A stretch of DNA of 36,866 nucleotides, from the IMG/VR virus record IMGVR_UViG_2724679138_000004. The stretch is one strand, 5' to 3'. The translations under genes and the position numbers were made by a program. The first letter of the stretch is position 1. Every line of letters starts with the position of its first letter. This document shows, in pieces, positions 1,401 to 29,948 of the stretch. The stretch comes from a virus (taxonomy: Duplodnaviria; Heunggongvirae; Uroviricota; Caudoviricetes). The notes beneath the pieces were generated by a model that had not been told where the DNA came from, searched no databases, and saw only the letters and a program-made list of their open reading frames with translations.

Positions 1401-1446
1401 AAACCGATCACATACAGCTGCATTTATTAAGGTTATCATCCGTTTC
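1401..1446 (+). promoter_or_regulatory. Candidate cyaR promoter: -10 TATCAT at 1434-1439 with an upstream CRP-like half-site (TCACA) near 1408-1426
   Basis: -10-like hexamer sits 7 nt upstream of the sRNA 5' end; CyaR is known to be CRP-activated. Site assignment is by eye only. Confidence 0.4.
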
Positions 1447-1533
1447 GCTGAAAAACATAACCCATAAAATGCTAGCTGTACCAGGAACCACCTCCTTAGC
1501 CTGTGTAATCTCCCTTACACGGGCTTATTTTTT
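1447..1533 (+). ncRNA. cyaR: CyaR (RyeE) Hfq-dependent small RNA
   Basis: Matches the CyaR sequence from memory (GCTGAAAAACATAACCCATAAAATGCTAGCTGTACCAGGAACCACCTCCTTAGCC...); 3' terminator hairpin GCCTGTGTAA/TTACACGGGC followed by a T-run; lies directly downstream of yegQ as in E. coli. Confidence 0.85.
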
Positions 1534-7047: not shown

Positions 7048-8226
7048 TTAATTGCTGTTAACCGAAGTGACCAGATTTGCCAGGTATTTATCGGTAATAC
7101 GCTGGCGCAGGGTCAGGTTTTCGAGAGGAGGCACCGGGGTATAGTCATAGTCGATATACAGTTTTCCGGCCTTGAGGGTTTCCGCATCGTTGGATTCTTC
7201 GCTGAACCAGCAGGTCGCATCCACGATATAGCCGTTTGTTTTCAGCTCACGGAATTTGGCATTGATGCCGTCAACGATGTCGCGAATCAGCGTTGCGGTG
7301 ATGGGCTTGTCCACCGCCCACATGTGCGCCTCAGCCATCGTGTCGGCCAGCACCTGCGCGGTGCGGGTGTAGTTTTCAAAGAGGAACAGCGGGTCATCAG
7401 AGCAGGTACGGTTACCCCAGAATCGGAAACCGTCGCGGCGAATCAGCGTAGTGACACCTGCCTCGTTCAGCAGGTCAGCATCGGTGCCGGACTCCTGCAA
7501 ATCCCAGAATACAGATGCGCTGATGCCGGTAACACCGTTCACCCCGACGTTGGACAGCGTTTTATGCCAGCCCTGATCCTGGTCGATTTTAGCACGCAGA
7601 CCCAGCGCACGGGCGGTGGCGGTGGTACTGGTGACCGTATCCCATGCGAGGAAATCCGGCCAGATGACCATCAGCTCACGCTGGCTGAAATTCTGGCGGT
7701 AGGCTTTCACCTCGGAAATGGTTTTACAGCCCCATGCGCTGATATACCCGAAAGCGCGCAGCTTCTGACAGACTGATGCCAGTGCAACAGCCACCTCTTT
7801 GGTGTCCAGTCCCGGCACACCGAGAATACGCGGTTTAACACCGGTTACCGACTCTGCCGCCAGCAGGGCTTTCAGTCCGGTGTACTGACCGTTTTCGTCG
7901 GTGGTGCCGATGATATTGGAAACGGTCTGCGCAAGTTTCGTTTCTTCGTCTTCGCCGGTGCCGTCTTCCACACGTACAACAACGGTGACCGGTTTTGACT
8001 GGTCAGCGATGGCCTGCAACGACGCCGCCAGCGTGCCTTTTTTACCGGCCTTTGCAATTGCGCTCTGCACATTGGTAATCAGCACCGGTTTATTGAGGGG
8101 AAAGGTTTCCGCATCCGCATCGCTGGCCGTGCAGACCATGCCGACAATGGCAGTGGATACGGTGGAAATGACGCGGGTGCCGTCGTTAATCTCCAGCACC
8201 TGCACGCCGTGATGATAGTCACTCAT
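7048..8226 (-). CDS. FI: Contractile tail sheath protein FI
   Basis: 392 aa; P2 gpFI-like sequence and position upstream of FII. Confidence 0.92.
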   Translation of the reverse strand: MSDYHHGVQVLEINDGTRVISTVSTAIVGMVCTASDADAETFPLNKPVLITNVQSAIAKAGKKGTLAASLQAIADQSKPVTVVVRVEDGTGEDEETKLAQTVSNIIGTTDENGQYTGLKALLAAESVTGVKPRILGVPGLDTKEVAVALASVCQKLRAFGYISAWGCKTISEVKAYRQNFSQRELMVIWPDFLAWDTVTSTTATARALGLRAKIDQDQGWHKTLSNVGVNGVTGISASVFWDLQESGTDADLLNEAGVTTLIRRDGFRFWGNRTCSDDPLFLFENYTRTAQVLADTMAEAHMWAVDKPITATLIRDIVDGINAKFRELKTNGYIVDATCWFSEESNDAETLKAGKLYIDYDYTPVPPLENLTLRQRITDKYLANLVTSVNSN

Positions 8227-8751: not shown

Positions 8752-9810
8752 TTATTTTTCCTGTGTATCATCATTCAAATCCGGTGCAGTCCGAAGTACA
8801 TTCGTGAAGTTAAGAAGCATTTTTTTTGTGCCAAAAGTGAACATCTCAGAGATTTCAGATGAAATGCTATCCCAAATAAAAATGATATGCCTCAAATACT
8901 CAACAACTCCAGGCCGGTTCAATGTACCTTCGATAAGATAATGTTCAGGAATACCCTCCATTATTCCAGTCTTTCTTATCCAGAAAAGTCCAACCCTGTT
9001 GGCCGATTCACCACCTGCAAGCACATAACTACGACGTTGATCTGTGTTTGGAATAGAAAGTATTTCAAAAATTAAAGGCACGATCATTTCAAGCCTTACG
9101 AATGGCCTAGGATGTGTACCAACTGGTTCTGTTTGAACCTCATAAAGTTTTTCGCCTTGAAAACGATGTAACATTAATGATATACCACATGTCAAAAAGC
9201 AAATTGCCAATTCGCAATCTTCATTAATGGCAAGTTGTCGAACAATTTCTATTACACACATGTATGTGGAAAAATAATCGGCTGCAAGTTCCGTTGCGTG
9301 CCAAATGGCAGATGCATCGTCATTGTCTGATGATAAATTATTTAAGTGAATTTCAGACATTACATTAATTTCGGAACTATACCTGTTCCTTATAAATAAA
9401 TGGCCCTGAGTTAAGTGTCCTAACTCATGAAAAAAAACCCATGTCAAACCTGCTAGAAAAATGTTTTTAGTGAAATTAGTTTTATCCCACTCATTTCTTA
9501 AAGTGGTAAAGTTGGTTTGCCCATTAAACCACATATCATAAACTTCATCATCTTTACCAGAGTGAACATAATCTACAAAAGCAGCAGCATCATCATATAA
9601 TGATCGGATTAATTTATATGTGATTGATATAGCATGCCTTGGTGGTTCATCACGCTCTGAGTAAACTAAAGCTCTAGCGTTCACAATATCTGTAGTTTCA
9701 AATTGTAAAGCGAGACTGCCATTAATTTCTTTATAGTAATGTTCATTCAAATCTTCTGTAATAGAAGACAAAACACTTGTAGCCCAGTTGTATAGCGCGA
9801 TACTTTCCAT
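8752..9810 (-). CDS. Hypothetical protein with zincin-like HExxH motif (FFHELGHLTQGH); candidate defence cargo in the FI-G (Z/fun) hotspot
   Basis: 352-aa ORF, visibly AT-rich relative to flanking tail genes; HELGH encoded at 9415-9429; acidic residues downstream (HATELAAD) could supply the third zinc ligand. No family assignment possible without search. Confidence 0.75.
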   Translation of the reverse strand: MESIALYNWATSVLSSITEDLNEHYYKEINGSLALQFETTDIVNARALVYSERDEPPRHAISITYKLIRSLYDDAAAFVDYVHSGKDDEVYDMWFNGQTNFTTLRNEWDKTNFTKNIFLAGLTWVFFHELGHLTQGHLFIRNRYSSEINVMSEIHLNNLSSDNDDASAIWHATELAADYFSTYMCVIEIVRQLAINEDCELAICFLTCGISLMLHRFQGEKLYEVQTEPVGTHPRPFVRLEMIVPLIFEILSIPNTDQRRSYVLAGGESANRVGLFWIRKTGIMEGIPEHYLIEGTLNRPGVVEYLRHIIFIWDSISSEISEMFTFGTKKMLLNFTNVLRTAPDLNDDTQEK

Positions 9811-10094: not shown

Positions 10095-10415
10095 CTACTG
10101 CGGAGTGCAATCTATAGATAAAATCGTTTTCCGTGACTTAGCTTCTGGAGGGGACATTTCCTCGCTTTCGCTGATATTGAAGCTCCATGCGCCAACGCCT
10201 TTGACTTTCGAAAACAACAATTCACCTTCATAGCCTAGATCGTCAGTGCCAGCGATTATGACCATCCCACTCAACGTTCTCTGGTATGCATTCTCAAAAA
10301 CACGCCCCTCATAATCAATAGTTGCCCGTTCTTTGTCGAAGACAACCGCTTTGTCGCCCTCACAACGCATTACTGACTTGGCTTGTGATACACAGGAAAA
10401 ACCCAGAAGGATCAA
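10095..10415 (-). CDS. Small hypothetical protein, possible Sec signal peptide (…LLILILLGFSCVSQA|KSV)
   Basis: 106-aa ORF with TTG start in the track; no in-frame ATG upstream, so the true start and the signal-peptide reading are uncertain. Confidence 0.4.
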   Translation of the reverse strand: MILLGFSCVSQAKSVMRCEGDKAVVFDKERATIDYEGRVFENAYQRTLSGMVIIAGTDDLGYEGELLFSKVKGVGAWSFNISESEEMSPPEAKSRKTILSIDCTPQ

Positions 10416-11135: not shown

Positions 11136-13385
11136 TTATACCTGCGCCACGTTATACCATGTCCCGTTAATGTATTTCTGCACCGGTCTGTAATATACGC
11201 CACCAATGTTATCGGCAGAGTTTGAGCCGGTATCCTGAACAATAATGCCGGTATATACGCAACCTGACGGAGCCTGATGCGTCCATGTAGTACCATTATT
11301 TGCTGGTTTATATGTAGATGCACCGCCCAGCCGCATGTCTCTCACATAACGTGAATCTGACTCAGCTTTGGTGTATGCACCAACATCTCCCGCTGAGGGT
11401 TTATGAGCAGTTGTATATAGTTGCGCCCATCCAGACCAGTTAGCATCTGTGGTATCTCGTCGGGAGCGAATATATGCCGGAGCATGAGCACCGCTGGTTC
11501 CACTCCAGCCAATAAGTAACTCACCCTCTCCTACAGCGGTTACGCCAGTGAGATGAAGCACATTACCATAGGCTGTTGGGTAGCCATTGTTGTATGCCTC
11601 ATACATCTGAATACCTGGTGTCCCCTTTACGCTCCCACCTAATGCAGTAACACGGTTTCTGGATACCAGTGTATTAATATTTATATCGGCAGAGCCATCA
11701 AATCTGACACCATTAATATTTCTTGCGTTCGCTAACTTAGTTGCTGTTGCAGCATTTCCTGAAAGGCTGGAAATAAATGGATGTGAACAGTAATAACCAC
11801 GTCCATTTTTAAAATCCAGAATAGCCTGTACGTTCGTGCTTTCTGTAGCGGGATTAGTTGCCCCCCACTTATATGTCGTCTGACCGACGACATAATCCTC
11901 TGTCGGAACAATAACCGTTAGCCCTTCCTCTGCAAGAATTTGTACTGGGAAAGCTCTGGCTTCAACATAAAAAACACTACATACATCATCATCTTTCAGG
12001 CTTGTAACAATGGAATGGATTGAACGCTCATTAGTCTGATACGTCCAGAAATAACCTGCCGCATATGAACCACGATCGGTCCAGCCTCCGGGCATAACCA
12101 TGCCATTAAACTCGCAGTTATTCATTACATAATCGCCGTTATAACAACCAGTTGAAATAACGACGCGGGATGCCATTTCTCCTGAAAGGCTGGCAGCACG
12201 GCGAAAGATAACGGGATACCACTTCCCGGCAACGACATTTGCAGGGGCTGCAAACGAATACTTTCGCATTCCCTTTTTCTTATCCACTTCACCTTTGCTG
12301 TAAACATTAATGTTACTCAGGAAGCGTCCTTTATCAGGAATATCCGCACCGTTCTGATCTTTCTGAAGACGTTTTTCAGCATTGTCATAGGCAGACTTCA
12401 CCGCTTTTGGTGTTGCAGCCAGCGTTTCAGAATCACTGTTGGTGGCGCTACTGAGCTGGACAAGACCTTTTCGCGCTGTGGTGGCATCCTGTGCAGTGTA
12501 TTTCCCGTTAGCAAGGTCATACGCTGTCTTAACCGCCTTTGGCGTTGCCGCAAGCGTTTCAGAATCGCTGTTGGTGGCGCTACTGAGCTGGACAAGGCCT
12601 TTTCGCGCGGTGGTGGCGTCCTGTGCAGTGTATTTCCCGTTAGCAAGGTCATATGCTGCTTTTACCGCTTTTGGTGTTGCGGCGAGCGTTTCAGACGTGC
12701 TGTTGGTGGCACTACTGAGCTGGACAAGGCCTTTTCGCGCTGTGGTGGCGTCCTGTGCAGTGTATTTCCCGTTAGCAAGGTCATATGCTGCTTTTACCGC
12801 TTTTGGTGTTGCGGCGAGTGTTTCAGACGTGCTGTTGGTCGCACTGCTTAACTGAGTAAAACCTTTGGCGGTCAGCGAGGCGTCCGGGTGACGTCGTGAC
12901 TGTTCATGTTCTGCAATTTTGTCATCAACGTAATCCTGCGTTGCCATCACCGTTGTGGTGTCAATGGTCAGCGCCACTGAGGCCACACTGCTGACGATGA
13001 TGACCATGCGGCAGGTCTGCGAACGCCCTGAGCCTTCGGCAAGAGCTGGCTTATAACTTTCAGCCATGTTCGCCACGGCAATTAACGTTCCAGCATCATC
13101 GTACAGGCCAAGCTCACGCATCCAGAAACCGCCCACCTCCGGCGGAATAACCAGCTCTGCGATAATATAATTACTGTTTCGTTTGTCCTGGCTGATTTTG
13201 TTCAGCGCATGTCGCCAGACTTCGTGGATAAGCCCGGTCTGTCCGGCATCCGGGACAGGCAATTTACCACCGCCATCCCCGACGGCCATCGTGGTAATGT
13301 TGACCTTCCGCCCTCCCGGCGCGGTTGCCGCTGCCAGCTTTGCTGCACCGGCAGTGGTGATAACGGTTTTAAATTTCGTGCTCAT
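11136..13385 (-). CDS. H: Tail fibre protein H with four tandem 44-aa repeats
   Basis: 749 aa; N-terminus matches P2 gpH (MSTKFKTVITTAGAAKLAAA...); central repeats ...LSSATNSTSETLAATPKAVKAAYD...; divergent C-terminal receptor-binding part. Confidence 0.9.
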   Translation of the reverse strand: MSTKFKTVITTAGAAKLAAATAPGGRKVNITTMAVGDGGGKLPVPDAGQTGLIHEVWRHALNKISQDKRNSNYIIAELVIPPEVGGFWMRELGLYDDAGTLIAVANMAESYKPALAEGSGRSQTCRMVIIVSSVASVALTIDTTTVMATQDYVDDKIAEHEQSRRHPDASLTAKGFTQLSSATNSTSETLAATPKAVKAAYDLANGKYTAQDATTARKGLVQLSSATNSTSETLAATPKAVKAAYDLANGKYTAQDATTARKGLVQLSSATNSDSETLAATPKAVKTAYDLANGKYTAQDATTARKGLVQLSSATNSDSETLAATPKAVKSAYDNAEKRLQKDQNGADIPDKGRFLSNINVYSKGEVDKKKGMRKYSFAAPANVVAGKWYPVIFRRAASLSGEMASRVVISTGCYNGDYVMNNCEFNGMVMPGGWTDRGSYAAGYFWTYQTNERSIHSIVTSLKDDDVCSVFYVEARAFPVQILAEEGLTVIVPTEDYVVGQTTYKWGATNPATESTNVQAILDFKNGRGYYCSHPFISSLSGNAATATKLANARNINGVRFDGSADININTLVSRNRVTALGGSVKGTPGIQMYEAYNNGYPTAYGNVLHLTGVTAVGEGELLIGWSGTSGAHAPAYIRSRRDTTDANWSGWAQLYTTAHKPSAGDVGAYTKAESDSRYVRDMRLGGASTYKPANNGTTWTHQAPSGCVYTGIIVQDTGSNSADNIGGVYYRPVQKYINGTWYNVAQV
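12380..12875. repeat. About four tandem copies of a 132-bp coding repeat inside H (phage tail-fibre repeat)
   Basis: Near-identical 132-nt units visible in the DNA; the antisense ORF 12439-12855 is repetitive for the same reason. Confidence 0.85.
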
Positions 13386-14831: not shown

Positions 14832-15179
14832 TCAACTCACAGGGATGGTTAACGAAAGTGGCTGGCCGGTGTCGTTGTGCTGGCCGGTTAACGTGACCGT
14901 CATTCGCCCGTCAAAACTGCGCTCAGTGGTGACGGATGACAGGGTGACGCGGGGTTCCCATTTCAGCACCGCCATGTAACAGGCGACCTTAATCTGCAAC
15001 TCAAGCGCCGGGGTCTGCGGCTGGTCAATCATTGACGCCAGCAACGAGCCGTAATCACGGCGCATCACCCGTGAGCCGACCGGTGTGCGCAGGATATCGC
15101 CGATACTCTGGCTGATATGCTCAAGGTCAGTGACAGTCAGGCCATCACTGCGATTCATTCCGAGATAACGCGCTGTCAT
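14832..15179 (-). CDS. W: Baseplate wedge protein W
   Basis: 115 aa; P2 gpW length and position. Confidence 0.9.
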   Translation of the reverse strand: MTARYLGMNRSDGLTVTDLEHISQSIGDILRTPVGSRVMRRDYGSLLASMIDQPQTPALELQIKVACYMAVLKWEPRVTLSSVTTERSFDGRMTVTLTGQHNDTGQPLSLTIPVS

Positions 15180-15811
15180 AGAGGACTCCCGGTTGTGCCG
15201 CCGCTGTCGCCGGGGTGTTTATGGGTATGCAGTACCTTACCGTTCGATGAGAGTTCACCGCCGGTGTGTTCAATGTTGCCGCGCATCGTCCCGCCCTTCT
15301 GCACTTCCAGCGTGCCGGTAATCAGCCTGTTGGTGCAGACCACCTCCGGTGTGTCCAGGGTGACGCGGGTTGATGCTTTCACCGTGACCACCGGCACCGT
15401 GGCAGTAACAGAATCAGAAGCCGTCACGCTGGCCGTTTTAATTCCGCTTACCGTGAGTGCACTGGTTTCGGGTTCATATTCAATCACCGCCCCGTCAGGG
15501 AAACGGATATGCAGGGCATCCGCCGACACAGACGGCGAGGGGTTATCGCCGGAATAAATCCCCGGCAGAACGAACGCCGTGTCGAGTTCACCGCCCACGG
15601 CCAGAATCAGCACCTGTTCCCCCACGGAAGGTGCCCACCATGTGCGCGAACGCCCGGCACGATGGGTCAGCCACTGAAGCCAGTCGGTGCACATGCCGCC
15701 GGTCTGCACACGGCAGCGACCGGCGTTAAGGTTGGTTTCGACGACAAGACCGGTGCGAATCATGTTGCGCAGTGCGCGCGCGAGTTCCTGAATATTTGCG
15801 AGAGTGTTCAT
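15176..15811 (-). CDS. V: Baseplate spike / assembly protein V
   Basis: ATG at 15809-15811 gives 211 aa (MNTLANIQELARAL...), matching P2 gpV; the listed ORF begins at an upstream TTG. Confidence 0.88.
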   Translation of the reverse strand: MNTLANIQELARALRNMIRTGLVVETNLNAGRCRVQTGGMCTDWLQWLTHRAGRSRTWWAPSVGEQVLILAVGGELDTAFVLPGIYSGDNPSPSVSADALHIRFPDGAVIEYEPETSALTVSGIKTASVTASDSVTATVPVVTVKASTRVTLDTPEVVCTNRLITGTLEVQKGGTMRGNIEHTGGELSSNGKVLHTHKHPGDSGGTTGSPL

Positions 15812-15894
15812 GCGTGTGAGATTGCACAATATATAAAAGTTATGCTATCTGGATTCATTTGTAGAACGACCATACAACATTCGAGGAGAGCGTA

Positions 15895-16680
15895 ATGTTC
15901 AGTGATAATGTGACTAATGCGTGGTGGTTTATCTCTTTGTATCTATTTTTATTAATAGCATTAACATTTATTACCTTTGGTAAAAGTAATCTTATGAGAT
16001 TTATTGCACATCATTTCAATTTTGAGTATTCAGACAGAAAGTTAAAAATGCTCGACAAAAAATGGCGCGACATTCAACTATTTAAAATAATTAACGGAAT
16101 CAATGTATCAGGCATCGAAGATGTGAGAATGATACAGCAGGGGCTGATTGATGGAAAACTAAAAACATCGTATTTTTTTCTTACTCGCTTCTGGGGTGAC
16201 ATAACAAAACCACCACACATAATTAAAACAATAATTGTAATTCTGTCCAGCATTATTTATATTCTCTTCGCATGTTATATACACAACAAACAATCCGCTA
16301 TAGTAAGAGATGCCATAGGCATACCATATAAAAATATGATGTACTATGTTTATAGTGACAAAGTTCTTTTATCCTTCAACAATAAAACAGTTGAATTCAA
16401 TAAAACTTATAGCCTTGCCGATTGCAAGAGGCTACGAAACGTATTTATAAAAGACACACTTCCTGAGATCGCCTGCAATAAGCTCTTACAGCTAAACGAG
16501 GAGGACTCGGAATGGTTAAGTCAGGAGATTAAAGATAATAACAGCCAAAAAAAAGCATTATTAATAATATCCCTCATCTATTTCATTTCAGGTCTGGTTA
16601 TATTCCTGTCATATACAAAATTCCTTTACGCCAATAAGAAGGTTGTAGAATACAAAGCATCAAATAAAAATCACTCATAA
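15895..16680 (+). CDS. AT-rich moron: hypothetical membrane protein with three predicted transmembrane helices
   Basis: 261-aa ORF on the strand opposite the late genes; strong RBS GAGGAGAG 5-12 nt upstream of ATG; hydrophobic segments near aa 9-28, 108-128 and 220-245; occupies the P2 orf30 position between V and S. Confidence 0.8.
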   Translation: MFSDNVTNAWWFISLYLFLLIALTFITFGKSNLMRFIAHHFNFEYSDRKLKMLDKKWRDIQLFKIINGINVSGIEDVRMIQQGLIDGKLKTSYFFLTRFWGDITKPPHIIKTIIVILSSIIYILFACYIHNKQSAIVRDAIGIPYKNMMYYVYSDKVLLSFNNKTVEFNKTYSLADCKRLRNVFIKDTLPEIACNKLLQLNEEDSEWLSQEIKDNNSQKKALLIISLIYFISGLVIFLSYTKFLYANKKVVEYKASNKNHS

Positions 16681-16686
16681 ACCTCT

Positions 16687-16721
16687 AAACATTGAGCGAC
16701 CAGCATGGCCGCTCAATGTTT
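16687..16721. terminator. Bidirectional hairpin terminator between the moron (+) and S (-)
   Basis: Perfect 12-bp inverted repeat AAACATTGAGCG / CGCTCAATGTTT with an 11-nt loop, T-rich on both sides. Confidence 0.55.
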
Positions 16722-16751
16722 AATTGCGCATCAGCCTCTGCCTGGATAAAA

Positions 16752-17204
16752 CTAACGCTCAAGGTGAGCCAGGATAATCTCTTCAATCATCTGCACATCC
16801 TCACCGGTAAAGCCGAGCAGAGGACGCGCCGGATAATCAATTTTCTTACCGTCTTTCCGGGTTTCTTCCGACAGACCGAACTGATGCACACTGGCGATTT
16901 TCGGCGACTTCCCGCCGTAAAATTCCATTGATGCCTGTTCCGGGCTGGCGCGGATATGCAAAAAACGACTGGTGATAAGTTTCGCAAACATTTTTCGTTT
17001 AACGCGACCGGTCTTTTTTCTGGCGCTCTGCTGCTGGCGTGGTGCGTAGGGTGTGCCGTCCGGGGCTTTCTGTGCCATCACCCGACGCTGCTGACTCTGA
17101 CGCAGACGTTTCGCCAGTTCGGCACTCAGTCGCCGACGCCCTGACGGTGACAGCGACTCAATAAGTCCGGTCAGCCGGTCTTCAAAACGCTTAAACTCAT
17201 TCAT
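16752..17204 (-). CDS. S: Tail completion protein S
   Basis: 150 aa; P2 gpS length and position. Confidence 0.9.
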   Translation of the reverse strand: MNEFKRFEDRLTGLIESLSPSGRRRLSAELAKRLRQSQQRRVMAQKAPDGTPYAPRQQQSARKKTGRVKRKMFAKLITSRFLHIRASPEQASMEFYGGKSPKIASVHQFGLSEETRKDGKKIDYPARPLLGFTGEDVQMIEEIILAHLER

Positions 17205-25959: not shown

Positions 25960-26667
25960 CTATATATACTTCCTTTTCACTCTACTTAATTCTATCACTG
26001 ATGAGGAGTGACAAAATGACAAATTAATAGTATCGATATAATCCAAAATTTGACTCTCAACCTCAATAAAAATATTTTTGGGCCCATTACTAATCGATAT
26101 ACCGATTTCATCCAAAACAGCCATCATTTTTCTCTGATGAGTTTTATATTTATAGTCTTTATTTTCCTCTGTAATATGCGCATTGGCTTCCTCAATAACG
26201 CATTTGATTCTAGATATTATTTCTAGATAATCTCTCGAAACAGATATATCACCGCCTTGCGCTTCAGGGAACATAACCCTATACCATCTAAAAAAATTAA
26301 CTTTCTCTGGATAGATGCTACTTCTTTTAGTTAACTCAGCACTTGCAAATTCTCTAAACATCGTCAGATGACTAGTGTAATTACTATTATTATTATTTTT
26401 AACTCCAGCGTTATATGTCATCAAAGCAATCATAACACCAAAAACGGTAACAAAAGTTGTTATAAGCCATCCAAACGCCTGAAAATACATTACTATACCA
26501 GATGTTTTTTCCGCAAAAAATTTTAAGCACTGGCTATCGAAGCATATATCACGCTCATATAGCTTTTCATTCTGAATAGTTTCAAAAAGAGAAATTAGCG
26601 AAAAAATCAAAAAAAGAGCTGACGACACACCGACAATATATTTGAGAAGTCTAATATTTGCATTCAT
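25960..26667 (-). CDS. Two-transmembrane-helix protein, putative effector partner of the upstream reverse transcriptase
   Basis: 235 aa, strongly AT-rich; hydrophobic helices near aa 8-28 and 58-85; start ATG overlaps the RT stop (ATGA), indicating translational coupling. Confidence 0.8.
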   Translation of the reverse strand: MNANIRLLKYIVGVSSALFLIFSLISLFETIQNEKLYERDICFDSQCLKFFAEKTSGIVMYFQAFGWLITTFVTVFGVMIALMTYNAGVKNNNNSNYTSHLTMFREFASAELTKRSSIYPEKVNFFRWYRVMFPEAQGGDISVSRDYLEIISRIKCVIEEANAHITEENKDYKYKTHQRKMMAVLDEIGISISNGPKNIFIEVESQILDYIDTINLSFCHSSSVIELSRVKRKYI

Positions 26668-27938
26668 AATGGTTTTAAAGATGCCAATCTAGATTTAAAA
26701 CACTCCAGTTTTTCTTTAAATGATTCAGAGCGAGTAAGAATAATCATCTTATATCTCGTCAAATCATATTTTCTTTTATACCAATGTTTATTTTGATTAC
26801 CTTTCGAATACGACAACTCTAAACTTTTTATAGCTGCATCAATCACAGCAACATCTCTTTTAGATGGCATCGGTTTTATTGCCTGCAACTGTTTCTTGAA
26901 TGATTCATATTTTTCATGCCCAACACGGCCAAGCTTATTCACTCTCCCCATACATCTATTGAATTCTTTTCTGTATGCAACACTTGTTTTTGTGTTATTT
27001 TTTGCCGCCAGTAATTTCAAATTATGTATAGATGCCCTGATTCTTTTGACTTCATCGGATGGTAGTCGAGGTGAGTCATAGTCAACTCTTAAACCATGTA
27101 CTTTTATAGGTTCAGATGAACAGTGAAATATTTTAGTTTTGTGCTTATTTATCGGCAAGTCATGCTCAGAAAGCATCCTCTCTATATGGCTTTGCATTTG
27201 AGAAAAATCATAATTACTTATTTTAGATGACACGGTAATATCATCTACCAAACGCGTATAAACAAGTCCTTTCCTCTGCGCACGTCTTACCACATCCCCT
27301 TCAACAGCGAATAAACACAAAGTTGCTATATAGCTTGATGTTAAGGCCCCCTGTACGACAAAATCATCCTTAGTACATATATCCACCAAGTATTCAAGAG
27401 CCTCATCCTTAATATGCAATATCTCCTCAAACACGCTCCTAACCAGATCTCTATGGATATTATCGAAAAAATTACTTATATCCACCTTGAGAACTGTTTT
27501 TGCTCCACAATGAGCCTTTGCACATGAAACATAGTCACGTTTGACATTAGAATTTAAAACATCATTTTTACTGGGAACTGAACCAAACAAAAATGAAGGA
27601 AAAACAACCAATTCCTTAAAGATACGTTTATTAATTCTACTCTGTAATAATCTCATTTTAGGATGCAGGGAGTAGACAATCCGTTTGCTTCCGTCAATTT
27701 TGGGAATTTCTTTTAGAGTATATTTCTCATCTAATGGTAATTCTGCAATAGCTTTAAGCTCTTCAACAGAAATCGATAAAGCCTTTGACAACTTTTCAAG
27801 TGTTGTGATAGGAGCATTGGATTTGCTGTATGGTTTAAATTTATCCATAAACATACCATTCAAATTCAAAGTTACGTACGGTCTTCCCATACTCAAGGGT
27901 GGAACAGCAGAGATGCTTACATCAACAATTGTCAGCAA
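26664..27938 (-). CDS. Retron-type reverse transcriptase (candidate); start codon uncertain
   Basis: RT motifs in order: LKVDISNFFDNI, QGALTSSYIATLCL, YTRLVDDITVSS (catalytic xDD at about 27239-27248), LPINKHKTKIF, VHGL; ORF in track starts at TTG 27938, alternative ATG starts at 27890, 27854, 27848. Confidence 0.8.
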   Translation of the reverse strand: MLTIVDVSISAVPPLSMGRPYVTLNLNGMFMDKFKPYSKSNAPITTLEKLSKALSISVEELKAIAELPLDEKYTLKEIPKIDGSKRIVYSLHPKMRLLQSRINKRIFKELVVFPSFLFGSVPSKNDVLNSNVKRDYVSCAKAHCGAKTVLKVDISNFFDNIHRDLVRSVFEEILHIKDEALEYLVDICTKDDFVVQGALTSSYIATLCLFAVEGDVVRRAQRKGLVYTRLVDDITVSSKISNYDFSQMQSHIERMLSEHDLPINKHKTKIFHCSSEPIKVHGLRVDYDSPRLPSDEVKRIRASIHNLKLLAAKNNTKTSVAYRKEFNRCMGRVNKLGRVGHEKYESFKKQLQAIKPMPSKRDVAVIDAAIKSLELSYSKGNQNKHWYKRKYDLTRYKMIILTRSESFKEKLECFKSRLASLKPL

Positions 27939-28198: not shown

Positions 28199-28404
28199 CG
28201 CCCGCTTCATGGGGCGGTTTTAATGCAGTTGCATGACCACTCAACTAGCGCGCCAGTCCTGATGTCGCCAGGCAGTTATTGTTCTCTGACTTGCATGCGC
28301 TTCGATGCAGAGTAATGCACTTCCTGAATTGCTCGCATTCGCATCGTTATCATGATAGAAAACAGGTAGTTATTTGTGCGCAACTTAAGAAGAAATCACT
28401 AATT

Positions 28405-29948
28405 ATGAAAAAGATTTATGAATTAACTACTGGTAGAGCGCTTAAGTATTTTCTGCAGCATGATTCATACACTACTCTGGAGCTACCCAGTTATGTCGAT
28501 TTTTCTTCCTTGCTTGAAGAAATCAACTCCGCGATAGATGAAGGTAAAATCAACTTCCAACCTGACTCCAAGTCATTGATGGGGAAGAATATAAATTACG
28601 AGGTTTTAGTCAGCAAAGATGGCTTATATAGCTGGCGACGAATAACACTAATTAATCCTCTGTACTACGTGTATTTTTGTAAACTTATTACATCCCCTTC
28701 CAACTGGAAGGCTATAAGGAATAAATTTAGAGAGTTTGAGTCTAATGATCTTTTTTATGCTCAAGTACCCCAGTGAGCAAAAAGAACACCTCAAACGTAG
28801 CTGCATCTGTTTTAAACTGGTGGGAAGATTTTGAACAAAAAAGTCTTTCATTGGCTCTTGAGTATGAGTTCATGTTCAGCACAGATATTTCAAACTTCTA
28901 CCCTTCTATTTACACTCATAGCTTTGAATGGGTATTCATCTCAAAAGAAGAGGCCAAAAAGAAAGAAAATAACAATAACCCAGGACGATTGATTGACACT
29001 CATATCCAGATGATGATGAGTAATCAGACAAACGGAATACCATTGGGTAGTACGTTGATGGATACATTTGCCGAATTAATTTTAGGCGAAATTGATTTAC
29101 AGCTAAGAAAAAAAACTGAAGAGCAAAAAATAACGGATTACAAAGTAGTTCGCTACAGAGATGATTATCGAATATTTTCAAGCAGTAAAGATGATTTGGA
29201 CAAAATCTCAAAGTGTTTGGTTGAGGTCTTAGGTGAGTTTGGGCTTGATTTAAACTCAAGAAAAACAGAACTACATGACGACATCATTCTTCACTCCCTT
29301 AAATCAGCAAAAAAAGAATATATTATAGAAAGGTCGTTCAACTCCCTACAGAAAATGTTGTATGCAATATATTTATTTTCTTTAAAACATCAAAACTCCA
29401 AAATTACAGTTAGATATTTAAATGATTTCTTGCGAAAATTATTTAGGAAGAAAAAGATCACAAATAGTGGGCATCAACTAGATGCAATGCTTGGAATTAT
29501 TTCAAGCATCATGGCTAAAAACCCAACCACCTACCCAGTGGGAATGGCTATTTTCGCAAAACTCTTGACCTTCCTTTATGACGACGATGAACTCAAATTT
29601 GGCAAGTTACAACAACTTCATTGTAAACTAGGTAAACAACCAAATACTGAAATGTTAGATATTTGGTTTCAACGAGTTCAAGGGAAGATACACACACAAT
29701 GGGAAGGCGATTACAAAACAGCCCTATGTCAACGCATAAATGATGAACTCAAGGAAAAAAAAACATTTACCATTGATGGCCTGTGGGATGTAGAGTGGAT
29801 TCCGGGTTCAGCCAAAAATAAAAACAAACAGAAAATACTATCAATTTTGAAAAAAACAAAAATTGTGGATTTAGATGCATTCGAAGAAATGGATAATGAT
29901 ATTACACCAGAAGAAGTGAACTTATTCGACAAGGAACACAGCGCTTAA
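28405..29948 (+). CDS. Abi/UG-type reverse transcriptase split by a -1 frame change at a T6 run (segments 28405-28776 and 28773-29948); possible pseudogene or programmed frameshift
   Basis: Segment 1 carries RT motif 1-like RRITLINPLYYVYFCKL; segment 2 carries FMFSTDISNFYPSI, NGIPLGSTLMDTFAEL, VVRYRDDY (YRDD at 29154-29165) and FGLDLNSRKTEL; frame 0 opens at 28749 and the T6 run is 28751-28756. Confidence 0.75.

Follow-up and report, generated by a model that had tools for sequence, protein, structure and literature searches.

The question raised by positions 15,812 to 16,721 of the analysed window, a 36,866-nt stretch of DNA from a virus of the Caudoviricetes (IMG/VR record IMGVR_UViG_2724679138_000004), is which gene this AT-rich segment holds and what that gene may do for a prophage. 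The gene at 15895-16680 (+ strand) is almost certainly orf30 of a P2-type prophage, a single-gene accessory cassette that lies between genes S and V and is antisense to both late operons. The product was collinear with P2 Orf30 (AAD03281.1) at 85% protein identity over 261 aa without gaps. The slot, the strand and the ribosome-binding site of orf30 are the same as in P2, and the flanking annotation is also the same and maps one-to-one onto the window. DNA identity across V-orf30-S was 92.9% to P2 and 99.3% to Peduovirus P24A7b, which carries the closest deposited phage allele of Orf30 (99%), and E. coli EC93 has a P2-like prophage to which the whole window is 99.99% identical. In a PHROG search, phrog_2407 matched residues 1-261 of the 261 in Orf30 (E 8e-144), and the S-orf30-V architecture was identical in eight phages. 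Compared with P2 Orf30, the window protein differs only as an allele, and most of the substitutions fall in two of its membrane helices, the N-terminal one and the second. Between V and orf30, the intergenic DNA that includes the pV activator site has 98% identity to P2, and P2 has the same hairpin as the window. The first-pass annotation had stated that the segment sits where P2 has orf30. It was right about the slot and wrong in implying a new gene, since this is an orf30 allele at 85% amino acid identity. The feature itself is not new: the P2 GenBank entry and publications on P2 have for years covered orf30, its cargo slot, the promoter element and the terminator.

The left anchor of the slot is gene V (baseplate spike; 15176-15811, - strand), which opens the late V operon; it is an ORF with 97% DNA identity to P2 V and is annotated in EC93 as "phage baseplate assembly protein V". 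The right anchor is gene S (tail completion; 16752-17204, - strand), with which the late O operon ends; this ORF was identified by the P2 and EC93 annotation. Between them lies a replaceable AT-rich segment of 937 bp (15811-16747) with the pV promoter region, orf30 and a hairpin; it was delimited by the drop in GC and by homology to P22H1, which ends at 15810 and resumes at 16748. In P22H1 and S164 the S-V slot is empty, with a 66-bp gap in which an unrelated spacer of ~63 bp stands instead of the segment, and the junctions are precise. S-V is one of three recognised cargo sites in P2-like phages (PMC3091744, PMC6823313, PMC2771037). A moron on the strand opposite to the late genes, as had been proposed, is what was found: an accessory gene of foreign composition, present or absent among P2-like phages. 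Among complete E. coli genomes, orf30 occurs at 482 places vs 1810 for the P2-type V gene (~27% of slots) and is present in about 9% of the genomes.

The reading frame starts with ATG and encodes a predicted inner-membrane protein of 261 aa. GC was 0.31-0.34 over 15850-16600 vs 0.55-0.60 in V, W, S and R (overall 0.33 vs 0.58); at 33% GC, the chance of 261 stop-free codons computed from base composition is ~2e-9. An Rfam search of the region gave no RNA family. The Shine-Dalgarno sequence GAGGAGAG was read from the sequence at 15883-15890 (+ strand), 6 bases 5' of the ATG, and is kept in P2 and P24A7b. Three hydrophobic segments (residues 11-29, 109-127 and 221-239) are helical in the AlphaFold model too (pLDDT 85, pTM 0.74). 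Both earlier claims about the frame, that of an AT-rich 261-aa ORF with three membrane helices (here 15895-16680, GC 0.31-0.34, three hydrophobic segments) and that of an own ribosome-binding site (15883-15890), were borne out.

The topology is predicted to be N-out/C-in with three inner-membrane helices, on the basis of a positive-inside charge pattern and a cysteine pair in loop 2. The family-mean net charge was +5.5 in loop 1, 0 in loop 2, +2.2 in the C-tail and -1 at the N-terminus. Loop 1 (residues 30-108, ~80 residues) is basic, helical and predicted to be cytoplasmic, and carries the most conserved motif of the family, D-x-Q-L-F-K/R-x-x-N-G-I-N. Loop 2 (135-219, ~85 residues) is predicted to be periplasmic, with a four-stranded sheet and helices, and contains C177 and C194. 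A C-x(13-17)-C pair occurs in 27/27 family members, and the median number of cysteines in loop 1 is zero; the conserved loop-2 pair probably forms a disulfide. An inner-membrane location, as in superinfection-exclusion membrane proteins, is predicted from the three hydrophobic helices, the charge pattern and the AlphaFold model.

The Orf30 family consists of 44 clusters among 1.8 billion proteins, with ~27 full-length members that diverge to ~20% identity and keep the motifs. It appears to be a small, enterobacterial family distantly related to Pfam DUF6216 (PF19723), judging from a 76%-probability profile match over under half of the protein. PF19723 matched 5/27 Orf30 relatives (best E 8.7e-7), and the window protein itself gave no match to it even at E<=1. 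One member of DUF6216 is the protein encoded by ECD_RS04470 of BL21(DE3) (WP_000115390.1; 44.5 bits to PF19723, cutoff 27.3), whose gene lies in the same S-V slot of a P2-like prophage on the opposite strand. The BL21 protein resembles Orf30 in its length of 268 aa, three hydrophobic helices and gene GC of 0.33, and its periplasmic domain, with a D-C...C-x-x-L cysteine pair, and third helix align collinearly to Orf30; within the BL21-type DUF6216 family, C154 and C177 do not vary. It differs in that the N-terminal half is not alignable and the large cytoplasmic domain bearing Q-L-F...N-G-I-N is absent. The BL21 gene also overlaps the end of S, whereas orf30 is set apart from S by the hairpin. 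Aligning the Orf30 family with the BL21-type family using hhalign gave a probability of 76% (E 2.3e-5) over 115 columns that cover only the periplasmic domain and the third membrane helix; in a pairwise comparison of the two proteins the similarity was not significant and identity was below 20%.

Other searches gave no assignment. The Pfam scan of Orf30 had a sole, sub-threshold match to DUF6535 over 36 N-terminal residues, and the NCBIfam scan had sub-threshold noise only (an antiporter subunit). With PADLOC-DB 2.0, the window protein had 0 matches and the 27 relatives yielded one chance-level match (E 0.0067). No PHROG with an annotated function was matched in the PHROG search, no match was found in the viral fold library at E<=0.001, and the sequence-profile search of PDB returned nothing meaningful. 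Foldseek against PDB gave a best E of 0.06 with a TM-score of 0.15, which is not significant; claudin/TARP-like folds recurred among these non-significant top matches because they share the shape of membrane helices plus an outer sheet. Homology to YmfE/Kunado of e14 was considered and rejected (hhalign probability at most 0.6%). Among deposited phage genomes, no distant relatives were found beyond 21 P2-type records, and the BL21-type protein had no phage match.

The first-pass annotation had suggested a lysogen-expressed function such as superinfection exclusion or another membrane-acting defence. A 2026 preprint reports that the BL21 DUF6216 gene in the S-V slot lies under an H-NS ChIP-seq peak and is transcriptionally silent, and that it is upregulated in an hns/stpA double mutant (bioRxiv 10.64898/2026.09.05.749240), which argues against simple constitutive expression of orf30 in the lysogen. 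GC was 0.32-0.35 in every family member examined vs 0.43-0.57 in the surrounding locus. Our best guess, tentatively held, is that orf30 may encode an H-NS-silenced, envelope-level phage-exclusion protein. On this reading orf30 would stand outside the virion and the lysis programme, and its 33%-GC DNA would probably be coated and silenced by H-NS/StpA like the BL21 DUF6216 gene. Orf30 would then be made at a low level only, or upon relief of silencing, and from its place in the inner membrane it would shield the lysogen against other phages, most likely by interfering with DNA entry (superinfection exclusion) or, alternatively, through a membrane-damaging abortive response. H-NS silencing is also the likely reason that orf30 has no observed phenotype: none has been reported in P2 beyond "nonessential" in the P2 record, and no experiment connects phage resistance with orf30 or with a protein of the DUF6216 family. 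Taken as a whole, the explanation that combines the orf30 identity, the predicted membrane product and the exclusion mechanism is given a little less than an even chance. In favour of the exclusion mechanism are the accessory character of orf30 and its relatives and the defence systems at another cargo site of the window. On the other side, the silencing evidence is from one relative, <20% identical, in one preprint; the searches matched no PADLOC model, no PHROG of known function, no significant fold and not YmfE/Kunado; the promoter scan upstream of orf30 was negative; and other P2 genes already account for the classical exclusion phenotypes.

Known systems offer partial parallels. Like orf30, the P2 genes old, tin and fun(Z) are nonessential, of foreign composition and located at recognised variable sites (PMC3091744, PMC6823313); they differ in that their exclusion phenotypes are established and their sequences are unrelated to Orf30, a membrane protein. 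The classical P2 exclusion phenotypes are already accounted for by old, tin and fun(Z) (cited in bioRxiv 10.1101/2024.10.15.618418 and PMC9122126). YmfE/Kunado of e14 is a functional analogy only, as a single prophage gene with predicted transmembrane regions that is H-NS-silenced (bioRxiv 10.64898/2026.09.05.749240). The same applies to P22 SieA, which is prophage-expressed and described as both necessary and sufficient to exclude superinfecting phages (PMC10883804). A wider proposal, somewhat doubtful, is that Orf30 and DUF6216 could belong to one superfamily, so far unrecognised, whose members are single-gene, H-NS-silenced anti-phage proteins of the inner membrane. They would be the resident defence of the S-V cargo site in P2-like prophages, and their periplasmic disulfide domain would sense or obstruct the injection apparatus of an incoming phage.

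The placements of relatives, located with a 6-member family alignment, point to an autonomous accessory role. In two Enterobacter chromosomes, the relative is a solitary AT-rich islet from which phage genes are absent, flanked by an ECF-sigma/DsbD-like cluster and a chemoreceptor gene, and on another contig a relative adjoins LysE/LysR-type genes. In a 186-like Pantoea prophage, the relative comes last in the cI-int operon and shares an 8-bp overlap with int, and in a Pantoea prophage remnant between 87-bp repeats it is the sole intact gene. One relative lies directly 3' of a P2-type portal gene (the portal at 70% identity), a position that is the known P2 defence hotspot (PMC9122126). Eroded P2-like remnants, among them those of Serratia and Klebsiella, still carry DUF6216 genes; retention in remnants could mean that silenced DNA is harmless rather than useful, a reading that would count against the exclusion mechanism. 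It is unlikely, in our estimate, that orf30 is instead host-fitness cargo unrelated to phages, which would change the envelope (for example towards colicin, tailocin, contact-dependent toxin or stress tolerance) or help colonisation. The solitary chromosomal gene kept in Enterobacter, the relative beside LysE/LysR-type genes, the retention in eroded remnants, the purifying selection on orf30 and the lack of a match to any defence family in PADLOC would all fit such a role. Against it, the protein has no domain suggesting a transport, enzymatic or signalling function, the placements are mostly phage cargo slots with the P2 defence hotspot among them, and the chromosomal neighbours differ across genera.

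The transcription signals around orf30 bear on a role in the lytic cycle. The late promoter pV has an Ogr/delta-type activator-binding site, which maps to 15853-15880 (- strand) from positions 10239-10266 of the P2 record AF063097, where it is annotated as "activator binding site; activation of pV promoter". V transcription is annotated to start at 15811, at a distance of 55.5 bp from the centre of this site. The dyad TTGTAG-N7-ATACAA is present at 15859-15877, inside the mapped site, which supports its earlier reading as a late-promoter or regulator site. A promoter scan found no sigma-70-like promoter in the 83 bp upstream of orf30, and all of its matches were inside the ORF; a TATAAA seen by eye at 15832-15837 lacks a suitable -35 element. 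Activation of orf30 by Ogr from the pV site was also considered and rejected on geometry: mirrored about the centre of the site, transcription would begin near 15922, which is 27 nt into the ORF, and such a start would remove the N-terminal helix, which is conserved family-wide.

On the other side of orf30, a symmetrical hairpin at 16686-16722 lies between the converging orf30 and S. The P2 annotation makes it the putative rho-independent terminator for the late O operon, whose transcription approaches from S. Its arms (16686-16702 and 16706-16722) are 17 nt long and 94% complementary, and contain a perfect 12-bp stem (16687-16698 and 16710-16721). The + strand fold had -21.6 kcal/mol (z -5.0), and an 86-nt - strand stretch containing the hairpin had -37.8 kcal/mol (z -6.3); in each case 0/200 shuffles were as stable. 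The hairpin is conserved across 8 alleles (diversity 0.026). Its U-tract is weak in both directions, and a simple terminator scan did not call it. It probably ends the orf30 transcript as well. Of the dedicated bidirectional terminator with a 12-bp stem that the first-pass annotation described, the stem holds and "dedicated" does not, since the hairpin is shared with the O operon and primarily annotated for it.

It is quite improbable that orf30 is a lytic-cycle helper made in P2 infection, with a part in tuning lysis or in shielding the infected cell or the progeny, such as a block to superinfection or re-adsorption in the latent period. The gene does lie among lysis and tail genes, with lysA-lysB-lysC-R-S directly downstream on the other strand, the predicted N-out/C-in three-helix membrane topology would suit such a helper, and orf30 is nonessential, like lysis modulators. 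This is outweighed by the antisense orientation to both late operons, by an Ogr site placed for pV only (the mirrored start at ~15922 being inside the ORF), by relatives outside any phage or in a cI-int lysogenic operon, by loops of 80-90 residues unlike those of holins or antiholins, and by the absence of orf30 from about three quarters of E. coli P2-type prophages.

Selection was estimated from 8 alleles. The dN/dS of orf30 was 0.46 vs 0.14 for V and 0.06 for S, and 8/8 orf30 alleles have an intact frame and no indels. Within Orf30, dN/dS was 0.30-0.39 in the two soluble domains and ~1 in the N-terminal helix, probably because hydrophobic swaps are cheap there. The lack of indels, the dN/dS of 0.46, the conserved family motifs and the confident AlphaFold model indicate that orf30 is a real, selected gene. 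Diversifying selection as the signature of an arms race was not supported, as dN/dS is <1 except for ~1 in the N-terminal helix. Least probable of all is that orf30 is inert or tolerated cargo, an AT-rich gene from a P2 ancestor that persists as H-NS-silenced and harmless with no present benefit: no function has been assigned 25 years after annotation of the P2 genome, dN/dS is several-fold above that of the flanking genes and reaches ~1 in the N-terminal helix, the family has very few members and one relative is H-NS silenced (preprint), but the frame is intact and indel-free in all eight alleles with dN/dS of 0.46 (0.30-0.39 in the soluble domains), the motifs and the cysteine pair are conserved to ~20% identity, and the gene survives as the sole intact one in eroded remnants.

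Among the P2 cargo sites, orf30 occupies the one without a link to function in the literature examined. The handles gained on the putative exclusion protein are the predicted topology, the periplasmic cysteine pair, the link to DUF6216 and H-NS silencing as the likely cause of the missing phenotype. If Orf30 is a true exclusion protein, all three variable sites of P2 would carry defence functions, and a function would be named for a Pfam domain of unknown function. Of the other two cargo sites in the window, one carries known defence systems, a type IV retron and AbiP2, and the other (the Z/fun slot) carries a protein with only a weak Lit-like match.

The 261-aa ORF between genes V (15176-15811, minus strand) and S (16752-17204, minus strand) runs from an ATG at 15895 to 16680 on the plus strand, with the Shine-Dalgarno sequence GAGGAGAG (15883-15890, plus strand) six bases before the ATG. 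GC content is 0.31-0.34 over the ORF versus 0.55-0.60 in the neighbouring genes, and the chance of 261 stop-free codons at this composition, computed from base composition, is about 2e-9. The ORF, its low GC and its ribosome-binding site had been described in the first-pass annotation, and all were found as stated. The P2-like prophage that E. coli EC93 carries between yegQ and yegR matches the window at 99.99% identity over 36.7 kb. The V-ORF-S DNA is 92.9% identical to bacteriophage P2 and 99.3% identical to Peduovirus P24A7b; the protein is 99% identical to that of P24A7b, 85% identical without gaps to P2 Orf30, and matches phrog_2407 (labelled 'unknown function') over its whole length (E 8e-144). 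On the closeness of these matches the ORF is identified as orf30 itself. The position assigned to it in the first-pass annotation was thus right, and the implied distinct gene was an allele of P2 Orf30. The gene is not new, having been annotated in P2 as 'nonessential' (GenBank record AF063097), and the function proposed for it here is a hypothesis.

The orf30 position is one of three recognised sites for horizontally acquired nonessential genes in P2-like phages, and no function is assigned to orf30 there (PMC3091744, PMC6823313, PMC2771037). In the P2-like phages P22H1 and S164, which lack orf30, the S-V gap is only 66 bp and homology to the window stops at 15810 and restarts at 16748. From these breaks, the exchangeable unit is estimated at 937 bp, comprising the pV promoter region, the ORF and the hairpin, and the sharp junctions bear out the earlier description of an AT-rich moron. 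The P2-type V gene was found at 1810 places in 1581 complete E. coli genomes and orf30 at 482 places in 464, all chromosomal, with about one quarter of the P2-type prophages in these genomes carrying orf30. The empty-slot spacer of P22H1 (L016 813-878) holds a GC-rich hairpin, GCCGCCGG...CCGGCGGC; as this spacer bears no relation to the pV promoter region of P2, V must have a differently organised promoter there. The S-V slot of an Enterobacter P2-like prophage (L003 6945-7766, minus strand) contains an extra 273-aa ORF beside the Orf30 relative, with no match in Pfam or PADLOC.

An inverted repeat with 17-nt arms (16686-16702 and 16706-16722, 94% complementary) lies 3' of orf30 and contains the 12-bp perfect stem reported earlier. 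None of 200 shuffled sequences folded as well (z -5.0 and -6.3 on the two strands). The strong hairpin was confirmed, and its dedication to orf30 was not: AF063097 annotates it (16686-16722) as 'putative rho-independent terminator for O operon', and orf30 shares it with this late operon, which runs towards it. V and orf30 are separated by 83 bp that match P2 at 98% identity, and the 28-bp stretch labelled 'activator binding site; activation of pV promoter' in AF063097 maps to 15853-15880. The dyad TTGTAG-N7-ATACAA (15859-15877), previously suggested as a late-promoter or regulator site, falls inside this site, and from the mapped annotation and the spacer identity it is recognised as the core of an activator site, of the Ogr/delta type, already known for late promoter pV. 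Service of orf30 by this activator site from the standard position was ruled out, the mirrored start falling at about 15922, within the ORF. A scan for sigma-70-like promoters gave matches only within the ORF and none in the 83 bp preceding it. AF063097 places the V-operon transcription start exactly where the V start codon begins (window 15811, L001 1612), which implies a leaderless V mRNA.

The Orf30 family is small: five 90%-identity clusters were found among 5.8 billion proteins, and searching 1.84 billion representatives exhaustively with a profile returned 44 (36 with E<=1e-10), with named members from Escherichia, Enterobacter and Pantoea. Searches with Orf30 against Pfam, NCBIfam, PADLOC and PDB sequence profiles, and fold searches, gave nothing informative; PF19723 (DUF6216) was matched weakly by 5 of 27 Orf30 relatives. 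BL21(DE3) ECD_RS04470 (268 aa, 'DUF6216 family protein') lies on the opposite strand between S and V of a P2-like prophage remnant, matching orf30 in slot and orientation. The two proteins show no significant pairwise similarity. From the second helix to the C-terminus, the Orf30-family profile and the BL21 protein align collinearly, and profile-profile comparison with the BL21-type family gave a 115-column match (probability 76%, E 2.3e-5) spanning the periplasmic cysteine domain and third helix. Distant homology over the C-terminal 60% is probable on these results; membership of DUF6216 by Pfam's definition was not accepted. The DUF6216 connection and the S-V slot common with the BL21 gene are modestly new, as are the predicted topology with its conserved periplasmic cysteine pair and the survival in prophage remnants described below.

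Relatives were found in varied contexts. One from an Enterobacter metagenome-assembled genome (38% identity) occupies the V-S interval of a P2-like prophage, beside the 273-aa ORF noted above. On two Enterobacter chromosomes (36-37% identity) the relative forms a lone AT-rich islet, flanked on one side by an ECF-sigma/DsbD-like cluster and on the other by a chemoreceptor gene, and phage genes are absent from the vicinity. The Pantoea sp. S-LA4 relative (22% identity) is the last gene of a 186-like prophage, in a cI-yebY-int lysogenic operon, and overlaps the integrase stop by 8 bp; at the same chromosomal site in Pantoea sp. ARC270 only a 79-aa integrase remnant and an intact homolog remain, flanked by an 87-bp repeat. 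A metagenomic-contig relative lies directly 3' of a portal gene 70% identical to that of the window, a position known as a P2 anti-phage hotspot (PMC9122126). BL21-type DUF6216 genes are also kept where P2-like prophages have eroded heavily, in Serratia, Klebsiella and another enterobacterium. From this variety, the gene acts alone, moves among cargo sites and tends to outlive its carrier prophage. All the Orf30/DUF6216 genes examined (L003, L004, L005, L006, L009, L010, L014 and L015) have GC of 0.32-0.35 in loci of 0.43-0.57, even at about 20% protein identity; low GC looks like a maintained property, not a mark of recent transfer. In one remnant (L031 5257-7849), the DUF6216 gene has as neighbours a CI-type repressor and an AAA_15/AAA_21 ATPase of 662 aa that also matches DUF2813 faintly, a layout resembling a small defence island.

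Hydropathy placed membrane helices at residues 11-29, 109-127 and 221-239, in agreement with the three claimed at first pass. For 22 family members with exactly three helices called by hydropathy threshold, mean net charge was -1 for the N-terminus, +5.5 for loop 1, 0 for loop 2 and +2.2 for the C-terminal tail; read with the positive-inside rule, this pattern predicts that the periplasm holds the N-terminus and loop 2, and the cytoplasm loop 1 and the tail. A C-x(13-17)-C pair is present in loop 2 of all 27 full-length relatives (median of zero cysteines in loop 1) and fits a predicted periplasmic disulfide. The AlphaFold2 model, from a 27-sequence alignment, was confident (pLDDT 85, pTM 0.74), with a helix at 4-28, a helical cytoplasmic domain at 30-94, a helix at 109-134, a four-stranded sheet at 141-173 followed by two short helices, and one long membrane-crossing helix at 202-260. 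G68, G87, C194 and I212 are invariant in the family and G29, Q61, D76 and K254 nearly so; the cytoplasmic domain carries the strongest motif, D-x-Q-L-F-K/R-x-x-N-G-I-N.

Selection was estimated from eight alleles (window, P2 and six other phages) with identical gene boundaries and no indels. For orf30, dN was 0.070, dS 0.15 and dN/dS 0.46, versus 0.013, 0.09 and 0.14 for V and 0.007, 0.11 and 0.06 for S. Within orf30, the values were 0.153, 0.159 and 0.97 for the N-terminal helix, and 0.049-0.057, 0.15-0.16 and 0.30-0.39 for the cytoplasmic and periplasmic domains. The gene is kept by selection, and its protein evolves several times faster than flanking V and S, a rate compatible with an arms-race function and no proof of one. 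Experimental evidence on expression comes only from the BL21 relative, which a preprint reports to be H-NS-bound, with transcription of such bound regions rising in an hns/stpA double mutant (bioRxiv 10.64898/2026.09.05.749240). By analogy, ordinary lysogens probably keep orf30 (33% GC) silent, presumably through H-NS, which would explain why no phenotype has been attached to it to date. The e14 protein YmfE ('Kunado'), another silenced prophage membrane protein, blocks T5-like phages post-adsorption (bioRxiv 10.64898/2026.09.05.749240). Homology of YmfE to Orf30 and DUF6216 was looked for and not found, making YmfE a precedent and not a relative. The leading but tentative proposal is that Orf30 acts against phages at the envelope, through a DNA-entry block or a membrane-based abortive response. 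A host-fitness envelope function independent of phages is unlikely. A role as lytic-cycle helper is quite improbable for a gene independent of the late operons, and tolerated cargo without function is slightly more so for one kept by selection.

Other features were noted in the window. The portal-side site (25960-27938, minus strand) holds a type IV (Ec48-like) retron, with a reverse transcriptase matching RT_IV (E 8e-177) and a two-helix membrane effector matching 2TM_IV (E 4e-85). An AbiP2-type defence reverse transcriptase (28279-29948, plus strand) is split into ORFs of 165 and 391 aa by a frame change at about 28773. In the EC93 record, 99.99% identical, it is one intact 514-aa gene, and the discrepancy is either a genuine frameshift or a sequencing difference of one base. 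The tail-sheath gene (7048-8226, minus strand) is intact at 392 aa and frameshifted in the EC93 annotation, which explains the second single-base indel between the two sequences. The Z/fun cargo slot (8752-9810, minus strand) encodes a 352-aa hypothetical protein with a weak local Lit peptidase match (E 1.4e-5, residues 88-146). Internal repeats in the tail-fibre gene (12378-12845) recur every 132 bp (self-match identity of 91% at an offset of 132 bp and 86% at 264 bp), and the host sRNA gene CyaR (RyeE) lies at 1445-1530 (plus strand; Rfam 100.7 bits), just beyond the ogr end of the prophage.
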